A DNA stretch of 64,000 bases from Acidimicrobiia bacterium. Its GTDB lineage: Bacteria; Actinomycetota; Acidimicrobiia; Acidimicrobiales; Poriferisodalaceae. The stretch is taken from assembly GCA_022820925.1 (NCBI GenBank), contig JAJEEO010000012.1, positions 416,594 to 480,593 on the forward strand, written 5' to 3'. The position numbers were made by a program, and so were the translations under genes. The first letter of the stretch is position 1; every line of letters begins with the position of its first letter. The notes beneath the pieces were generated by a model. It saw only the letters and a list, made by a program, of their open reading frames with translations, was not told the DNA's origin and did no database searches. Of this stretch, positions 3,201-46,309 are shown one piece after another.

Positions 3201-3560
3201 ATGGCCGAGGTGACGATCTACCACAACCCGCATTGAAACTCTTCCCGGAACGCCTTGGCGGTCGCCGAGGAAGCTGGAGTCGAGGCCGATGTCGTTCTGT
3301 ATATGAAGACGCCGCCCGACCGGGAGACACTCGAGCACTTGGTGTCGATACTCGAGGACCCCGTCGAAGACCTAGTGCGCAAGGACTCGCAGTTCAAGAA
3401 GCTGAGCCTGAACGCCGACGACTACGTCGACAACCCCGGCGCAGTGGTGGAGCTGCTGAGCCAGCGCAAGGCGCTCATGCAGCGCCCGGTGGTCGTACGC
3501 GGCAACCGCGCCATCGTCGGACGTCCGAAGGGTCGCATCGCCGAGCTCCTGGCCGACTGA
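3201..3560 (+). CDS. ArsC/Spx-family thiol reductase with in-frame UGA at the catalytic Cys position (candidate selenoprotein; alternatively a nonsense pseudogene)
   Basis: ATG at 3201 reads MAEVTIYHNPH, then TGA (3234-3236), then NSSRNALAVAEEAGVEADVVLYMKTPPDRETL..., in the same frame as track ORF 3255..3560. It aligns with E. coli ArsC MSNITIYHNPACGTSRNTLEMIRNSGTEPTIILYLENPPSRDEL, so the TGA falls on Cys12. A stem-loop starts 5 nt after the TGA. Confidence 0.7.
3241..3273 (+). promoter_or_regulatory. SECIS-like stem-loop downstream of the ArsC-family UGA
   Basis: CTTCC (3241-3245) pairs with GGAAG (3269-3273). CGG (3246-3248) pairs with CCG (3265-3267), leaving A3268 bulged. The apical stem is CGC/GCG around loop CUUG (3251-3260). 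Paired by hand, not energy-evaluated. Confidence 0.4.
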
Positions 3561-4787: not shown

Positions 4788-7697
4788 ATGAGTGAACCCC
4801 CGGTACCCACGAGCCCAGAAGGGGCGTTCGCCGCACGCCACATCGGCCTGGGGCCTGACGACGTTGCTGTCATGCTCAAGCGGCTCGGGTTCGGCTCGCT
4901 CACTGAACTCGTCGATGCCGCCGTGCCTGCCGAGATCCGGATCGACGAGCCGATCGTGCTCGCAGGCATCGACCGGCCCCTCACCGAGACGGAAGCCACC
5001 GCGGCGATGCGCTGGCTGGCCAATGCCAACACGGCTGTGCACTCGTTGATCGGGCTGGGCTACTACGGCACGCTCACACCGGCCGTCATCCGGCGCGGCG
5101 TGCTGGAGGACCCGTCGTGGTACACGGCCTACACGCCGTACCAGCCCGAGATCTCCCAGGGGAGGCTCGAGGCGCTGCTCAACTACCAGACGATGGTGTG
5201 CGACCTGGTGGGCATGGAGATCGCCAACTCGTCGCTGCTGTGCGAGGGCACCGCTGCCGCCGAGGCGATGGCCATGGCCCGTCGCATCACACGCAGCGGG
5301 CCGGACTGCTTCTTCGTGGACGCCGACTGCCATCCCCAAGTCATCGACGTGGTGCAAACCCGTGCCCAGCCGATCGGCATCGACATCGTGGTGGGCGACC
5401 CGGCAACCGATCTGGCGCCGGCCGAGGTGTATGGCGCGTTGCTGGCCTATCCCGGCAGCAGCGGCGCTGTCCGCAGCCTTCAGCCGGCGATCGAAGCTCT
5501 GCACGACGCGGGAGCGATCGCAGCTGTCACCGCCGACCTGCTGGCGTGCTGCGTGCTGCAGCCGCCCGGCGAGCAGGGCGCCGACATCGTGGTGGGCAGC
5601 TCGCAGCGCTTCGGCGTGCCGCTCGGATTCGGCGGTCCGCATGCGGCATTCCTGGCGACCAGCGAGAAGCACCGGCGCTCGATGCCGGGACGGCTCGTGG
5701 GCGTCTCGGTGGATGCAGCCGGCAGGACCGCGTACCGGCTCGCGCTGCAGACCCGTGAGCAGCACATTCGGCGCGAGAAGGCCACCAGCAACATCTGCAC
5801 TGCGCAGGTGCTGCTGGCGGTGGTGGCCTCGATGTATGCGGTGTGGCACGGCCCCGACGGGCTGGCCGAGATCGCCGGGCGGGTGCACCGGCTGACCGCG
5901 GCGCTCGCCGCCGGCCTGCACAACCTGGGTCTGCGCGTGCGCAACGAGTCGTTCTTCGACACGCTGACGGTGGACGTGCCCGGCGCCGCCGATGGGGTGC
6001 TGGCCGCGGCGCTCGCGGCTGGTTTCAACCTGCACCGCATCGACGCCGACACGGTCGGCGTCTCGCTGGACGAGACCTGCGACGAATCGACGGTCGCGCA
6101 TCTGCTCGATGCGTTCGGGACCCTCGGGGACAGCGAGGCTCATGACAGCGTGTCGGTCGGAGCGCTGGCAGCCTCGGCGCCGTCGGGCATCGCCGACGAA
6201 CTGCTGCGCACCAGCGGGTACCTGACGCATCCCACGTTTCATGCACACCGCTCCGAGACCGAGATGATGCGCTACCTGCGCCGTCTGGCCTCGTACGACG
6301 TGGCGCTGGACCGGTCGATGATCCCGCTGGGCAGCTGCACGATGAAGCTCAATGCCGCAGCCGAGATGACCCCGGTGACCTGGCCGCAGTTCGCCGACAT
6401 CCACCCGTTCGCGCCCCCCGAGCAGTGGGAGGGCTACCGGCAGATCATCGCCGACCTCGAACGGTGGCTCGCGGCCGTCACCGGCTACGACGCCGTGTCA
6501 TTGCAGCCCAACGCCGGCTCCCAGGGCGAGCTGGCCGGGCTGCTCGCCATCCGCCGCTACCACGACGACCGCGGCGACGCCCACCGCACGGTGTGCCTCA
6601 TCCCCTCCTCCGCGCACGGCACCAACGCCGCGTCGGCCGTGATGGCCGGCATGCGGGTGGTGGTGGTGGGCTGCACCGACGACGGCGACGTCGACCTCGA
6701 CGACCTCGACGCCAAGATCGCCGAGCACGGCAATCAGCTCGCCGCATTCATGGCCACCTACCCCTCGACACATGGTGTCTATGAGGATGGCATCCGGCAG
6801 GTCTGTCTCAAGGTGCACGAAGCGGGCGGGCAGGTCTATGTGGACGGCGCCAACCTCAACGCTCTCGTCGGGCTCGCCGCGCCCGGCACGTTCGGCGCCG
6901 ACGTCAGCCATCTCAACCTGCACAAGACGTTCTGCATTCCCCACGGCGGCGGCGGGCCGGGCATCGGGCCGGTGGCGTGCCGCCTGCACCTGGCCAAGTA
7001 CCTGCCCAACCACCCGCTGGCACCCACTGCCGGCCCCGAGACCGGCCCGGGCGCGATCTCGTCAGCGCCGTGGGGCTCCGCGGGCATCCTGCCGATCCCA
7101 TGGATGTACATCGCCATGATGGGCACAGACGGCCTCACCCAGGCCACCCAGACGGCGATCCTGTCCGCCAACTACCTGGCCTCCCGGCTCGGCGAGCACT
7201 TCCCGATCCTGTACCAGGGCCGCTACGGGCTGGTCGCGCATGAATGCATCGTGGACCTGCGGCCGTACTCGGAGTGGGCCAGCGTGGACGACGTGGCCAA
7301 GCGGCTCATCGACTTCGGCTTCCACGCCCCGACGATGTCGTTCCCGGTGGCGGGGACGCTGATGATCGAGCCCACCGAGAGCGAGTCGCTGTCGGAGATC
7401 GACCGGTTCTGCGATGCGATGGCGACGATCCGATCCGAGATCGACAAAGTTGCGGAAGGCGACTGGCCGGCCGACGACAACCCGCTCGCCAACGCTCCCC
7501 ACACGGCCATCGACGTGCTGGCCGACAAGTGGGAGCACCCCTACCCGCGCACCGAGGCCGCCTACCCGGCAGGCACGGGCGTGGCGACGCAGGTGGCAGA
7601 CAAGTACTGGCCGCCGGTCAGCCGCATCGACGGTGCCTACGGCGACCGCAACCTCATGTGCGCCTGCCCCGACCCCCGCGCCTTCGAGACTGACTAA
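4788..7697 (+). CDS. gcvP: glycine dehydrogenase (decarboxylating), single-chain P protein
   Basis: 969-aa ORF with GGAGG 8 nt upstream of the ATG. Contains [23 protein letters not shown] and the PLP-region block [16 protein letters not shown]. Confidence 0.97.
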
Positions 7698-7725
7698 CAC
7701 GCTCGTGCGCGCCTAGCGTCGGGGC

Positions 7726-8442
7726 ATGGCGCGGGTCAACCCATCGGTGCTCGAGATGCCGGACGATGATGCGGCCGGCACGATGCCGTACTTCTCCCAT
7801 ATCGATATGTGGCTGCGCGCCGAAGTAGACGGGCTGAGCGATGAGCAGCTCGATCTCGACGACCAGTCCCCCGACCGGGAGCTGATGTGGTGGTCGATCC
7901 GGCGGCAGATCAGCCACATCGCCTGGGTGTCGCTGATCTTCGCGAAGCGGCGCTGCGGGACGCTGCTGTGGCCCGACGGCGACATCCCCGAGCCCATCGT
8001 ATGGTCCGAGCATCACCAGGGACCCAACAACAAGCACGATCTGCGGCTGGATCCTGAGCTGTTCTGGGACGTGCCCGATCTGCTCGACAAGCTGGACCTG
8101 GGCCTGAGTTGGATGCGCTACGTGGTCGCGTCCCATCCGGTGGAGACCTTCCGCGAGATGGTGGAGTCACGTCACAGCACGCTCTTCTGGGACGACGCCA
8201 TCACGGTGCTGCCCCGGGGTGCTTGGCATGATCCCGACGACGAGCGGATGATCGTGAACACGCTCGAATGCGCGATCTGGATGCTGTTCTACGAGATGGC
8301 CTCGCACATCCGCTCCATTCAGCGGATCAAGGAGATCCAGGGGCTGGCTTCAGCGGTCGAGCTGACGCGCTTCGGCTACCTGCGCCTCCCCCACTACTGG
8401 GGCGAGACCGACGCCCCCGCGCCCAGCATCACCAAGCTGTGA
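7726..8442 (+). CDS. hypothetical protein (possibly a DinB-like helical bundle; not verified)
   Basis: 238-aa ORF with non-shadow composition (W/E/D/I-rich). Its stop overlaps the next gene's start (GTGA). I recognise no catalytic motif. Confidence 0.6.
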   Translation: MARVNPSVLEMPDDDAAGTMPYFSHIDMWLRAEVDGLSDEQLDLDDQSPDRELMWWSIRRQISHIAWVSLIFAKRRCGTLLWPDGDIPEPIVWSEHHQGPNNKHDLRLDPELFWDVPDLLDKLDLGLSWMRYVVASHPVETFREMVESRHSTLFWDDAITVLPRGAWHDPDDERMIVNTLECAIWMLFYEMASHIRSIQRIKEIQGLASAVELTRFGYLRLPHYWGETDAPAPSITKL

Positions 8443-9362
8443 GCCCGAGGATCATTCTCGACTGCGATCCGGGCCACGACGATGCGGTGGCGATCCTGCT
8501 GGCGGCCCGCCACTGCGAGGTACTGGCGATCACAACGGTGTCGGGCAACGCGCCGCTGGAGATGACCACGGCGAACGCGTTGCTGATGTGCCAGCTCGCC
8601 GGGCTGGACATCCCGGTGCACGCGGGCGCGGACCGGCCGCTGCTGGTGCCTGCGGCCCATGCGCCGCGTGCCCACGGGGCGACCGGCCTCGACGGTCCGC
8701 CACGGCCCGACGTGCACCTGGCGGCAGCAAGCAACGACGCGGTCGGCGTCATCATCGAGACGGTGCGAGCTCACGACGACGTGTGGCTCGTGCCAGTCGG
8801 GCCGCTCACGAACATTGCGCTGGCCATCCGCCAGGCGCCGGACATCGTCGGGCGGGTGGCCGGTATCTCGCTCATGGGCGGCGCTGTCGGGCCGGGCAAT
8901 GTCACCCCGACGGCCGAGTTCAACATCTGGGCCGATCCCCATGCCGCCCAGATCGTGTTCGGCGCCGGCGTGCCGCTGGTGCGCATGGCCGGGCTCAACC
9001 TCACCCACCAGCTCTGCGTGGGGCCGGACGAATCCGCCGCCTTGCGGGCGCAAGGCGGCATGGTGCCCGAGTTCGTCGCGAGCCTGTTCGACTTCTATCT
9101 CGCCGGCTACCGCGAGCGTGCCGGGTTGGACGCCGCACCCATGCACGACCCCTGTGCAGTGCTCGCCGTGACCCACCCGGAGCTGTTCGCCTTCGGCACC
9201 CGCCATGTGGACGTGGAAACGAGCGGCGAGCTCACCCGCGGCATGACCGTCGCCGACGAACGGCCCGGCACCGACGCAGTGCCCAACTGCGAGGTCGCTT
9301 ACAGCATCGACGCCGCAGCCGCGCTCGAACTCATCGTCGACGCCGTCTGCAGCTACGAGTGA
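8439..9362 (+). CDS. nucleoside hydrolase (IUNH family)
   Basis: The GTG at 8439 overlaps the upstream stop (GTGA). The N-terminus VSPRIILDCDPGHDDAVAILLA carries the DxDxxxDD nucleoside-hydrolase signature. The upstream part of track ORF 8268..9362 overlaps the previous gene. Confidence 0.88.
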   Translation: MSPRIILDCDPGHDDAVAILLAARHCEVLAITTVSGNAPLEMTTANALLMCQLAGLDIPVHAGADRPLLVPAAHAPRAHGATGLDGPPRPDVHLAAASNDAVGVIIETVRAHDDVWLVPVGPLTNIALAIRQAPDIVGRVAGISLMGGAVGPGNVTPTAEFNIWADPHAAQIVFGAGVPLVRMAGLNLTHQLCVGPDESAALRAQGGMVPEFVASLFDFYLAGYRERAGLDAAPMHDPCAVLAVTHPELFAFGTRHVDVETSGELTRGMTVADERPGTDAVPNCEVAYSIDAAAALELIVDAVCSYE

Positions 9363-9499
9363 GACCGCCCGGTTGCCGAAGCCGCCACCAGTCGCCCACG
9401 AGTACGCAGGCGGAAGGCACGTCTCCTGCCGCGGTGAAGCAGCACCTCCCCCGCCGAGCGGCTCAGGCTCAGGGCGGTCACGTCGGTACCGTTGCCGCT

Positions 9500-10633
9500 G
9501 TGCCGACCCACAGCACTGCGAACAGCCCGGCATTCCGGCTGAGCCAGTACAGCCATGGTGCGGGCTGAGCGTGCAAGCTCGGGCCCTCCGAGCTGGCGCA
9601 GGTTCTGCGCCATCTGACTCCGCCGTCGCACCCGGACCTGCTGGTCGGCACTGACACCAGCGACGATGCCGCCGTGTGGCGGCTCGACGGCGACCGGCTG
9701 CTGGTGACATCGACTGATTTCTTCGCGCCGATTGTCGACGATGCGCGCACGTGGGGGCGCATTGCGGCCGCCAACGCCGCCAGCGACATCTACGCCATGG
9801 GCGCGAACCCACTGTTCGCTCTCAACCTGGCGGCCTGGCCCCGTGATGTGCTCCCGCTGGACCTGCTGGGCGAGGTGCTCGCCGGCGGTGCTGATGCCAC
9901 TGCTGACGGCGGCTGGGTGGTGGCCGGCGGTCACACCATCGACGCGCCCGAGCCGCTCTACGGCATGTCGGTCACCGGCACCATCGAGGCTGCCGGCGGC
10001 CAAACTGGCCTGCTGACCAACGCCGGCGGACAACCCGGCCAGGCACTCGTGCTCACCAAGCCGCTCGGCACCGGCCTGCTCGCGACCGCGCTGAAGCGTT
10101 CCGGCCCTGAAGCCACCGAGCTGGGCGGCGATCTGCACGCGGCGTATGCGGCCGGCGTAGCCGAGATGTGCAGGCTCAACGATGCGGCAGCCGCCGCTGC
10201 CATCAGCGCACGAGCGACTGCGGCCACCGATGTCACCGGATTCGGCCTGCTCGGACACCTGGCAGAGCTCGCTGCAGCCAGCGAGGTGAGTGCCGTGGTC
10301 GATGCCAGGGCAGTACCGCTATTGCCCGATGTCACCGGGCTTGCGACCGGCGGCTTCGTTCCGGGAGGCACTGGCCGCAACCTGGATCACCTCACTGAGC
10401 GTCTCGACGGCGGCGACGAGCTCACCCGCACCGTGCTTGGAGATCCGCAGACCTCGGGCGGCCTGCTGTTCGCCTGCGATCCCGCACGCGCCGGCGACGC
10501 TGTGCGCGAGCTGCGCGACAGCGGCCATGACGCCGCGGTGATCGGCGAACTCGCCGACGGCAGAAGCGGCACGGCGGGATCTATCACGATCGCGGGCGCC
10601 GTCACCGGAGACACCGCAACAGACGCAGGCTGA
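9500..10633 (+). CDS. selD: selenide, water dikinase (selenophosphate synthetase) with in-frame UGA (Sec) in the glycine-rich N-terminal loop
   Basis: Track ORF 8588..9568 ends ...AFRLSQYSHGAG at TGA 9566-9568. The same frame continues ACKLGPSELAQVLRHLTPPSHPDLLVGTDTSDDAAVWRLDG... into track ORF 9674..10633 (STDFFAPIVDD...). E. coli SelD reads [25 protein letters not shown], so the TGA aligns to Cys17; H. influenzae SelD has Sec at this position. The start is uncertain: GTG 9500 is preferred, and in-frame GTG 9434 is also possible. Confidence 0.85.
9576..9594 (+). promoter_or_regulatory. SECIS-like hairpin downstream of the selD UGA
   Basis: AGCTCGG (9576-9582) and CCGAGCT (9588-9594) are perfect reverse complements around loop GCCCT. 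The hairpin starts 7 nt after the TGA. Confidence 0.4.
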
Positions 10634-43964: not shown

Positions 43965-45203
43965 GTGTCCAACACAACGAATCGCATCGTCGTCGTCGGC
44001 GCCTCCCTGGCAGGCGCGCGCGCGGTGCACAGCGTGCGCGCTGCGGGCCATGACGGGCCGCTGACGCTCATCGGCGCCGAGCCGCACCTCCCCTACGACC
44101 GGCCGCCGCTGTCGAAGGAGTTCCTCACCGGCGATCAGGAGCCCGGCTCGCTGGCCCTCGACCCAGACGGCGCCTACCACGACCTCGACGTAGAGGTCAT
44201 GCTGAGCACCCACGCGGTGGGGCTTGACGTGGCGGCTCGAACGGTCGCTGTCGCCCCAGCGGCAGGCGGCAGCGCCGAGACGGTGCCGTTCGACGGCCTC
44301 GTCATCGCGACGGGCGCGGCGGCTCGGTCGTTGCCGGGCACGGAGGGCATCAGGGGTGTGCACACGCTGCGCACCGTCGACGACGCGCAGGCCATCCGTG
44401 AAGGTCTCGACGCGGGCGCGCGAGTGGCCGTGGTGGGCGGCGGCTTCATCGGCTCGGAGGTGGCGGCCTCCGCCAAGGCCCGGGGCTGCGAGGTGACGGT
44501 GATCGAGGCGGCCCCGGCTCCGCTGATGCGCGGGCTCGGAGCAGAGATGGGCACGCAGGTCGGTGCGCTGCACGGTCAGAACGGTGTGGAGCTGCGGCTG
44601 GGCGTCGGCGTGGACGGCGTGCTGGGCGCCGACCGGGTCGAAGCGGTCGCCATGGCCGACGGCAGCCGTGTCGAGGCCGACGTGGTGGTGGTGGGCATCG
44701 GCGTGGTGCCCAACACGGCATGGCTGGAAGGCTCGGGACTGCAGATCGACAACGGCGTGGTCTGCGACGAGATGCTGTGCTGCGGCCCCCCGGGTGTCTA
44801 CGCCGTGGGCGATGTCGCACGTGCGCCCAATGGCTGGCTGGGGCCGCTTCGGGGCTCCGAACCGGTGCGGGTCGAGCACTGGACCGCGGCAGTCGAGCAC
44901 GGCATGGCCGTGGGGCGCAACCTGGTGGCGCCTGGCGAAGCGCAGCCGTACAACTCGGTTCCCTTCGTGTGGTCCGACCAGTACGACGCCCGCATCCAGA
45001 TCGCCGGGCATCCCGACGCCGACGACGAGGTCGACGTGCTCGTCGGCTCAGGCCGTTCCTTCCTGGCCGGCTACCGGCGCAACGGCCGCCTGAGCGCGGT
45101 GATGGCGCTCGACGCGATCAGGCCGTTCGTGCGCTTCCGCCGGCTCCTGGCATCTCACCCGTCCTGGGACGACGCGCTGGAGCTCGCCGCAACCCTCGGT
45201 TGA
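43965..45203 (+). CDS. FAD-dependent pyridine nucleotide-disulfide oxidoreductase, ferredoxin-reductase-like
   Basis: Contains RIVVVGASLAGARAV (FAD GxGxxG), LTLIGAEPHLPYDRPPLSKEFL, VAVVGGGFIGSEVAA (the NAD site) and YAVGDVA. Confidence 0.88.
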   Translation: MSNTTNRIVVVGASLAGARAVHSVRAAGHDGPLTLIGAEPHLPYDRPPLSKEFLTGDQEPGSLALDPDGAYHDLDVEVMLSTHAVGLDVAARTVAVAPAAGGSAETVPFDGLVIATGAAARSLPGTEGIRGVHTLRTVDDAQAIREGLDAGARVAVVGGGFIGSEVAASAKARGCEVTVIEAAPAPLMRGLGAEMGTQVGALHGQNGVELRLGVGVDGVLGADRVEAVAMADGSRVEADVVVVGIGVVPNTAWLEGSGLQIDNGVVCDEMLCCGPPGVYAVGDVARAPNGWLGPLRGSEPVRVEHWTAAVEHGMAVGRNLVAPGEAQPYNSVPFVWSDQYDARIQIAGHPDADDEVDVLVGSGRSFLAGYRRNGRLSAVMALDAIRPFVRFRRLLASHPSWDDALELAATLG

Positions 45204-45216
45204 TCGGCTCCGCCGC

Positions 45217-45588
45217 TTAGTTGACGGTCTGGTCTACCTCGTCACGCTCGGCGTAGAAGCTCATCAGCCCGGCGATCTCCGCCATCTCGGGGATCGGATC
45301 TGGATAGGACCACACGACATCGTCGTAGCTCTGACCGTTCACTGCTACTGACCAGTAGCTGGCATCGCCCTTCCACGGTCAGTGCGTCGACAGCACTGTC
45401 GGCTGGAGCAGCTCCATCTTCACGTCGGAGATCGGCAGGTAGTGGCGAGGCGGCAGCCGTCCCTCGGTCAGCACCAGGGCCGCAGTCGAATCCGCCACGA
45501 TCTCGCCGTCCACCCGGACCGTCACCCGCCCTGGCTCGGGCACGATCGCGATCTCAGGTTTGCGATGTTCTGTCGCCGTCTCGCTCAT
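45217..45588 (-). CDS. DUF427-family protein with in-frame UGA at the conserved Cys of the CP(Y/W)KG motif (candidate selenoprotein; alternatively a nonsense pseudogene)
   Basis: Track ORF 45379..45630 ends ...LQPTVLSTH at TGA (45381-45379). Hand translation of the same frame continues PWKGDASYWSVAVNGQSYDDVVWSYPDPIPEMAEIAGLMSFYAERDEVDQTVN to TAA at 45219-45217. The DUF427 consensus, as I remember it, is ...T.CP(Y/W)KG.A.YWS...VWSY..P. The ATG at 45588 (MSETATEH) is preceded by AAGGGGA, giving 123 codons with U at position 70. Confidence 0.65.
45344..45359 (-). promoter_or_regulatory. SECIS-like hairpin GCUACU-GGUC-AGUAGC downstream of the DUF427 UGA
   Basis: A perfect 6-bp stem with apical loop GGUC lies 19 nt after the UGA. 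The E. coli fdhF SECIS apical region also reads GGUC, with the essential G and U. An outer CCGU/ACGG pairing (45378-45375 with 45338-45335) is possible. Confidence 0.45.
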
Positions 45589-45700: not shown

Positions 45701-46309
45701 TCAGTTGATGATCTTGAGTCCGAGCGATTCGCACAGATAGGGATGCTGGCTGCGGATGCGCTCCTCGACCGCGTCCATCCTCGTGTCGTCGTTCAGCGCC
45801 TGCAGCAGCAGAAGCTCGAATGCCGGCAGCTCCAGGCTGCCGCCGACGCGGTTGAGGAAGCCGATCACTGCGGCGGCGCCGGATCGCTCCTGGAATCGCC
45901 GCAGTGCCGCGTCGTCGGTGCTCATGATCTCGCACGAGCTGAAGTAGATGATCCGCCCGCCGGCCCGTCCGTCGAGCGCGTCGGCGAGATCCTCCAGGGT
46001 CACCTTGGTCGAGCCGCTCAGCCAGAGCTCTCCGGGCTTGCCGTGAAATCCGAAGTGCCCGATCTGGTAGTCGCGGTAGCGCTGCTGGGTCCATTTGCGG
46101 ACGTAGTAGAAGAGCTCGGGCGCCGTGCCGATGTCGCGCCGGATGAACTTCAGGCCGCTGAGTTCGCGAATGGTCTGCAGCAGCGTGGCCACGCCGAACT
46201 GCTGGCGGAGATCTGCATCGGAGTCGTCGCCTTCGAATGCAAAGACGCCCGTGGCGAGTCGCCGTGACGCCCGCCCGCCCGGAGCTGCTGCCGGCACATC
46301 CTTTGCCAT
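45701..46309 (-). CDS. hypothetical protein with a caspase/CHAT-like His...Cys arrangement
   Basis: 202-aa ORF with non-shadow composition. IGHFGFHGKPGELWL and, about 35 aa later, RIIYFSSCEIMS resemble the (A/G)HG ... (L/F)S(A/S)C dyad of CHAT/caspase-fold proteins. The family identity is unverified. Confidence 0.6.
   Translation of the reverse strand: MAKDVPAAAPGGRASRRLATGVFAFEGDDSDADLRQQFGVATLLQTIRELSGLKFIRRDIGTAPELFYYVRKWTQQRYRDYQIGHFGFHGKPGELWLSGSTKVTLEDLADALDGRAGGRIIYFSSCEIMSTDDAALRRFQERSGAAAVIGFLNRVGGSLELPAFELLLLQALNDDTRMDAVEERIRSQHPYLCESLGLKIIN

Follow-up and report, generated by a model that had tools for sequence, protein, structure and literature searches.

A gene on the minus strand of the window (the whole 64,000-nt stretch of DNA that was analysed) in all likelihood encodes a selenoprotein of 123 residues that belongs to the DUF427 family, with the UGA at codon 70 read as selenocysteine (Sec) by means of a SECIS element located inside the open reading frame; we put the probability of this reading at roughly 0.9. 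We are confident that DUF427 is a new selenoprotein family, the confidence applying to the recoding, and we are unsure of the function. In the proposed mechanism, a ribosome that arrives at codon 70 would insert Sec rather than terminate, the hairpin GCUACU-GGUC-AGUAGC with its loop 25 nt past the UGA would recruit SelB carrying Sec-tRNA(Sec), and the ribosome would then read on to the true stop 53 codons further. Sec would stand in for the one conserved cysteine of the family, in front of a P-W-K-G turn. Sec insertion of this SelB- and SECIS-dependent kind is well supported at codon 70, the dependence on SelB and the incorporation of selenium being inferred. Features of the window that bear on this reading are listed in Table 1.

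Table 1. Positions of Sec-related features in the window.
Feature	Position	Strand	Details
DUF427 coding sequence, candidate selenoprotein	45217..45588	-	123 codons, Sec at codon 70, stop TAA 45219-45217
In-frame UGA, proposed Sec codon	45379..45381	-	at the position of the conserved Cys in C-P-[WYF]-K-G
Proposed SECIS apical hairpin GCUACU-GGUC-AGUAGC	45344..45359	-	base-identical in 25 distinct Sec-type CDS; 5' arm GCTACT 45359-45354, loop GGTC 45353-45350, 3' arm AGTAGC 45349-45344
Possible extended SECIS	45333..45380	-	GACCGU (45380-45375) and ACGGUC (45338-45333) enclose the apical hairpin; weakly supported
ArsC-like Sec-type gene	3201..3560	+	TGA 3234-3236; MAEVTIYHNPH-U-NSSRNAL
ArsC-like hairpin CCUUGGC-GGUC-GCCGAGG	3253-3270	+	16 nt past the UGA, loop at 23 nt, 7 bp
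selD (selenophosphate synthetase), itself Sec-type	9482..10633, start approximate	+	TGA 9566-9568, SHGAG-U-ACK

The reading frame opens with the ATG at 45588, which is immediately preceded by a Shine-Dalgarno-like AAGGGGAG, and runs through 69 codons (ending in ...LQPTVLSTH) to the TGA at 45381-45379 and from there through 53 more codons to the TAA. The orthologs begin at the same start, MSETATEH. An earlier, sequence-only reading of this DNA had described the same continuation past the TGA, with coordinates that proved accurate, and had taken it for the C-terminal half of DUF427. This is borne out by the match to PF04248, which crosses the UGA and, with a cysteine placed at residue 70, covers the product end to end (profile positions 1–93 of 93, E = 1.6e-35; 121.2 bits against a gathering cut-off of 22.1). 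The family motif C-P-[WYF]-K-G-x-A-x-Y is present with U replacing C. As had been anticipated for the alignment to PF04248, the U falls on the conserved cysteine of the family. It aligns with Cys in two full-length orthologs that are 75% identical to the window protein (P0001 and P0002; STHCPWKGDASYWSV), in PDB entry 3DJM, where TACPLKGEASYYS aligns with STH-U-PWKGDASYWS, and in all 43 full-length homologs, in which P, K, G, A, and Y of the motif are likewise invariant. The window protein has no other cysteine. The description of this cysteine as invariant holds for the 43 full-length homologs and for the single-domain representatives (34/34), but not for the family as a whole, which comprises 4909 clusters at 50% identity (E ≤ 0.001) and in which 243 of 311 aligned domain instances keep the residue. 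In tandem DUF427 proteins (P0085–P0234) the cysteine is nearly always found in the C-terminal repeat, and S, D, or H is frequent at this position in the N-terminal repeat. The larger DUF427 proteins proved to be tandem repeats only.

The survey of orthologs, with one genome taken per species, yielded 26 loci, all of them from Candidatus Poriferisodalis or from Acidimicrobiia sponge-associated MAGs. Codon 70 is TGA at 24 of these loci (25 of 27 when the window is included) and TGC at the other two. At each of the 26 loci the 53 codons that follow are uninterrupted. A protein search returned 38 ortholog clusters (70–99% identical) that end at ...STH, 36 of which are 69 aa long. All 26 loci share a neighbourhood composed of Der GTPase, tRNA-Pro, DUF427, a convergent ferredoxin-reductase-like gene, and ribonucleotide reductase, so the TGC and TGA genes are positional orthologs, and the comparison of this codon among relatives that the sequence-only reading had suggested thus finds both forms at one position. 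When the flanking genes are placed in a midpoint-rooted tree, the two Cys loci group together as sister to the Sec loci as a whole, which indicates that Sec and Cys were switched once within this set. The Sec genes have a dN/dS of 0.16 (dS 0.49) in codons 83–123 and of 0.21 upstream, in codons 21–69; the part downstream of the UGA is therefore translated and constrained. Conservation of the frame past the UGA under purifying selection across species, as is expected of a bacterial selenoprotein gene, was found both here and in two metagenomic groups (0.09–0.14, see below).

Taken from one window, a lone in-frame stop could mark a pseudogene or an assembly error, but 24 genomes, each assembled independently, and about 38 protein clusters have the same TGA, and the feature is also found in unrelated metagenomic lineages. 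No decay follows the TGA in close relatives: the frame carries no further disabling mutations and evolves at the dN/dS of 0.16 given above. Conservation of the TGA across genomes, together with this ratio, refutes such an origin, and we regard its probability as negligible.

It is also highly unlikely that the UGA truly terminates translation, leaving a half-protein of 69 residues and a downstream half that is either untranslated or separately re-initiated, as in a split gene. This is exactly what gene callers produce in the form of the 69-aa clusters, and the window does have a GTG at codon 83 from which translation could restart. However, only 5 of the 25 Sec orthologs have this GTG and the next start codon is Met102, none being conserved between the UGA and Met102, so re-initiation cannot account for the constraint on the downstream part. 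Termination would also remove residues 71–82 (PWKGDASYWSVA), the best-conserved motif in the family. Codons 71–82 differ between Sec and Cys orthologs almost only synonymously (pS 0.58–0.95, pN 0.036). Moreover, both an AlphaFold (AF2) model of the Cys ortholog and 3DJM are single compact domains in which central strands flank the Sec/Cys site.

In the window UGA is otherwise the dominant stop codon: TGA terminates 33 of its 41 high-GC3 ORFs, and UGA is also the true stop of the DUF427 gene in 18 of 25 Sec orthologs. A local signal must therefore separate the recoded UGA from those that terminate. A change of the genetic code was rejected, since most ORFs of the window end in TGA. The signal that we propose is the hairpin described in the sequence-only reading, which indeed has a perfect stem and a GGUC loop; it starts 19 nt past the UGA, and its loop, which begins with G, starts at 25 nt. 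In the bSECISearch model, the apical loop lies ∼16–37 nt past the UGA and has a G among its first two bases. The geometry of the hairpin, a candidate SECIS, agrees with this model, with an alternative fold also predicted for the region.

Conservation of the hairpin at the nucleotide level is confined to the TGA forms. Codons 76–82 (GCC AGC TAC TGG TCA GTA GCA) show zero base differences across 25 distinct Sec-type coding sequences, and dS among the Sec genes drops to 0.067 in codons 71–82, compared with about 0.5 in either flank. Degenerate columns with an invariant amino acid are also invariant in nucleotide in 5 of 5 cases within the hairpin and in 9 of 48 cases elsewhere (p = 7e-4). The codons that make up the 3' arm are rare, with TCA, GTA, and GCA accounting for 5.9%, 1.9%, and 11.4% of their respective codon families in the window. 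In the two Cys orthologs the corresponding codons are TCG GTG ACG (L018) and TCA GTG ACG (L025), and the stem is broken. In the window sequence alone the hairpin is unremarkable (the z-score is -2.08 relative to dinucleotide shuffles and -0.53 relative to synonymous recoding); these single-sequence scores are not compelling, and the compelling support for it is comparative.

RNAfold and RNAalifold favour a mutually exclusive pairing, in which UGACCGUGG pairs with CUAC-UGGUCA. RNAalifold, applied to 17 Sec orthologs, gave a consensus fold that differs from the hairpin and detected no covariation in the latter, which is explained by the invariance of the whole 39-nt block. Rfam returned no SECIS match at E ≤ 10 on positions 45250–45450 and none at gathering thresholds on the window. 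On indirect grounds we favour the GCUACU/AGUAGC hairpin over the alternative pairing as the probable structure, because the invariance runs to nucleotide 39, through the GTA-GCA codons that are needed by this hairpin only, because its loop distance fits, and because the SECIS of the ArsC-like gene of the same genome has the same GGUC-loop design. The extended SECIS listed in Table 1 folds with -13.8 kcal/mol; in four orthologs, GGC at codon 85 abolishes one pair of its lower stem, and this loss is uncompensated.

The DUF427 gene is one of three Sec-type genes in the 64 kb, the others encoding SelD and an ArsC-like protein, and two of the three have a GGUC-loop hairpin at 23–25 nt. The Sec-containing SelD that the sequence-only reading had reported is confirmed by its in-frame TGA and by a TIGR00476 match of 362 bits (cut-off 125). 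Two candidate hairpins follow the selD UGA (AGCUCGG-GCCCU-CCGAGCU and GGCGCAG-GUU-CUGCGCC), and selA and selB do not adjoin the gene. The ArsC-like gene was found by a scan for UGA-interrupted high-GC3 frames, and its product matches TIGR00014 with E = 7e-27, under the curated cut-off. The ArsC-like (UxxS) and SelD (UxxK) proteins are both of types already established as selenoprotein families in prokaryotes (Table 1 of PMC13188914). The expectation that this organism should decode UGA as Sec is thus supported by two further genes within the window. As to the remaining machinery, selA, selB, and selC are absent from the window and the fetched loci, which together were the scope of this search: Pfam scans of 20 window ORFs gave no SelA or SelB, ARAGORN predicted no tRNA-Sec for the window or for any of 78 loci, and there was no Rfam tRNA-Sec match in the window.

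With selB and selC not seen in the window and fetched loci, and given that selection on the full-length product does not identify the inserted amino acid, UGA might instead be decoded independently of SelB by a near-cognate tRNA (Trp or Cys), with the hairpin stimulating read-through and the full-length protein containing no selenium. Several observations make this very unlikely. The UGA falls exactly on the Cys column, which is the signature of Sec/Cys exchange and not of leaky termination, and in the same genome UGA occupies the position of the catalytic Cys in SelD and in the ArsC-like protein, members of known selenoprotein families, with a similar hairpin. In addition, TGC is only one mutation away, yet TGA has been kept in 24 species. 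SECIS-directed Sec insertion at codon 70 therefore remains our preferred reading.

Sec-type DUF427 genes were also found outside this group of bacteria. Metagenome contigs were searched for a TGA that directly precedes codons for P-[WYF]-K-G-x-A-x-Y, and of the 52 matches about 40 are DUF427 genes with a profile match spanning the TGA. At least six sequence groups can be distinguished among them, and both single-domain (about 120–150 aa) and tandem (254–288 aa) architectures are represented, the Sec-type tandem proteins having Sec in the N-terminal domain and Cys in the C-terminal domain. In the two largest groups, dN/dS after the TGA is 0.09–0.14, and synonymous divergence falls in the first 12 codons. 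Most groups have a hairpin of their own across the same A-S-Y-W-S codons (for example AGGCCAG-GUA-CUGGUCU, CUACUC-CGUGC-GRGUAG with a change of a G-U to an A-U pair, and GCGUCC-UAYU-GGACGC). The folding energy of the whole segment relative to synonymous recoding separated Sec from Cys sites weakly (median z of -0.53 vs -0.02, p = 0.02), and an explicit hairpin test took its place. Of the 33 distinct Sec sites, 30 had a contiguous hairpin of at least 6 bp with a loop start 14–32 nt past the codon, compared with 1 of 39 Cys sites; when groups are counted instead, the figures were 6/8 for Sec and 1/39 for Cys (p = 1.7e-5). Several Sec groups are nearer to Cys forms than to each other, which suggests that Cys and Sec have been exchanged more than once.

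Gene callers cut these metagenomic genes into pieces as well, for example into C-terminal fragments of 165 aa. One metagenomic locus (L097, minus strand, offset 1021) has a stop 10 codons 5' of the TGA and could be either a degenerate copy or an artefact of assembly; it was excluded from the metagenomic counts. Another (L098, 3622-4903, plus strand) contains a 427-aa ORF in which a Sec-type DUF427 domain is fused to a domain of the PEP_mutase/isocitrate-lyase family (PF13714, E = 5e-67), and this fusion is a singleton among all loci.

The AF2 model of the 75%-identical Cys ortholog has a pLDDT of 91.6 and superimposes on 3DJM with TM-scores of 0.81/0.94 and an rmsd of 1.1 Å. After 3DJM, the model most closely resembles Mis18 and Yippee domains (TM 0.57/0.71). 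This likeness agrees with the published placement of DUF427, together with MsrB, in the β-tent fold, without the zinc site (PMC4287342). The two CxxC zinc knuckles are absent: there is no CxxC in the family alignment and no second Cys in the window protein. The Sec/Cys residue is located at the end of a β-strand, directly before the P-W-K-G turn. It would be the functional centre of the protein, acting as a single chalcogen that is most likely redox-active or nucleophilic and that would be regenerated by an external thiol or reductase. A catalytic role of this kind is proposed because Sec/Cys pairs generally mark catalytic redox cysteines. Extended to the whole family, DUF427 proteins may be widespread single-selenol or single-thiol enzymes with redox or nucleophilic chemistry on an MsrB-like β-tent scaffold, which would have undergone independent Cys-to-Sec exchanges, each with a different SECIS in the same A-S-Y-W-S codons, and whose Sec forms would be present in databases only as split or truncated fragments. 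We offer this wider picture tentatively, at slightly less than even odds.

Gene neighbourhoods and domain fusions gave no hint of a substrate. At 28 distant Cys homologs no gene neighbour was enriched, SDRs representing 5 of 104 neighbouring ORFs. In the window, a ferredoxin-NAD(+) reductase-like gene with Pyr_redox_2 and Reductase_C domains (43965-45203, plus strand) converges on the DUF427 gene and ends 13 nt from its stop. It was considered as a partner and set aside, being convergent, syntenic within the genus only, and not found at distant DUF427 loci. In one relative (L022, ∼6400-9800), about 3.4 kb are inserted between DUF427 and this convergent gene, an arrangement seen in that relative only. 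On the other side, the window has a DUF6642 gene (45701-46309, minus strand) between tRNA-Pro(GGG) and DUF427, as do 11 of the 26 related loci; at the loci without it, tRNA-Pro abuts DUF427, and the DUF6642 gene looks like a variable insertion beside a tRNA gene.

The literature on the function of DUF427 is essentially nil, many of the text matches referring to DUF4277 or DUF4278; one fungal DUF427 gene is induced under every stress tested. No link between DUF427 and selenoproteins was found in the papers searched. Neither DUF427 nor PF04248 is listed in a 2026 inventory that covers 119 families of prokaryotic selenoproteins (Table 1 of PMC13188914), and DUF427 is likewise missing from the supplements examined for the studies GOS, Peng 2016, and deep-Sep. 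Its absence from published selenoprotein lists, suggested in the sequence-only reading, thus holds for the lists examined. The window protein has no NCBIfam match at E ≤ 0.01. RefSeq names only the Cys orthologs, and the Sec forms are unnamed truncated products of 69 aa, some of them from NCBI records. DUF427 would thus add to the prokaryotic selenoproteome a family, present among sponge symbionts and in numerous metagenomes, that current inventories and annotation models have missed, its Sec-type genes being stored as fragments of 69 or 165 aa. A crystal structure of a DUF427 protein has been available since 2008 without an assigned function. The Sec/Cys pair singles out one residue as the probable functional centre and hints at redox or nucleophilic chemistry, which makes the function of DUF427 directly testable. 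The different SECIS solutions found on one peptide motif also form a natural series that should be useful for better models of bacterial SECIS elements.

Among known systems, the closest to the window protein are the Cys-containing DUF427 proteins (PF04248), represented by 3DJM (Rhodobacter sphaeroides RSPH17029_0682), the one DUF427 structure that has been solved. The full profile, the C-P-x-K-G-x-A-x-Y motif, and the fold of the ortholog model are common to both, whereas the window gene has Sec at the key position and an RNA hairpin within codons 77–82. With respect to recoding, the gene can be compared with E. coli fdhF, a case of SelB-dependent bacterial Sec insertion in which the SECIS is part of the ORF and comes shortly after the UGA. 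The match of the GGUC loop to that of the fdhF SECIS, claimed in the sequence-only reading, was checked in the fdhF sequence, which reads ...TTGCA-GGTC-TGCA... 18 nt past its TGA. In both genes an in-frame UGA is followed by a short GGUC-loop hairpin, at 25 nt in DUF427 and 18 nt in fdhF. However, the encoded proteins are unrelated, and the DUF427 hairpin has no evident bulged U and no Rfam SECIS match. The ArsC-like and SelD genes lie in the same window and have UGA at the position of a catalytic Cys, and the ArsC-like gene also has a GGUC-loop hairpin, of 7 bp and 23 nt past the UGA; their products differ from DUF427 in fold and chemistry and are listed as selenoproteins, whereas DUF427 is not. 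Finally, MsrB/SelR, Yippee, Mis18, and CULT (β-tent, Mss4-like) resemble DUF427 in fold, with Mis18 and Yippee as the next-best structural matches. MsrB has Sec forms in animals. These β-tent proteins share no significant sequence similarity with DUF427, which is without the CxxC zinc site.
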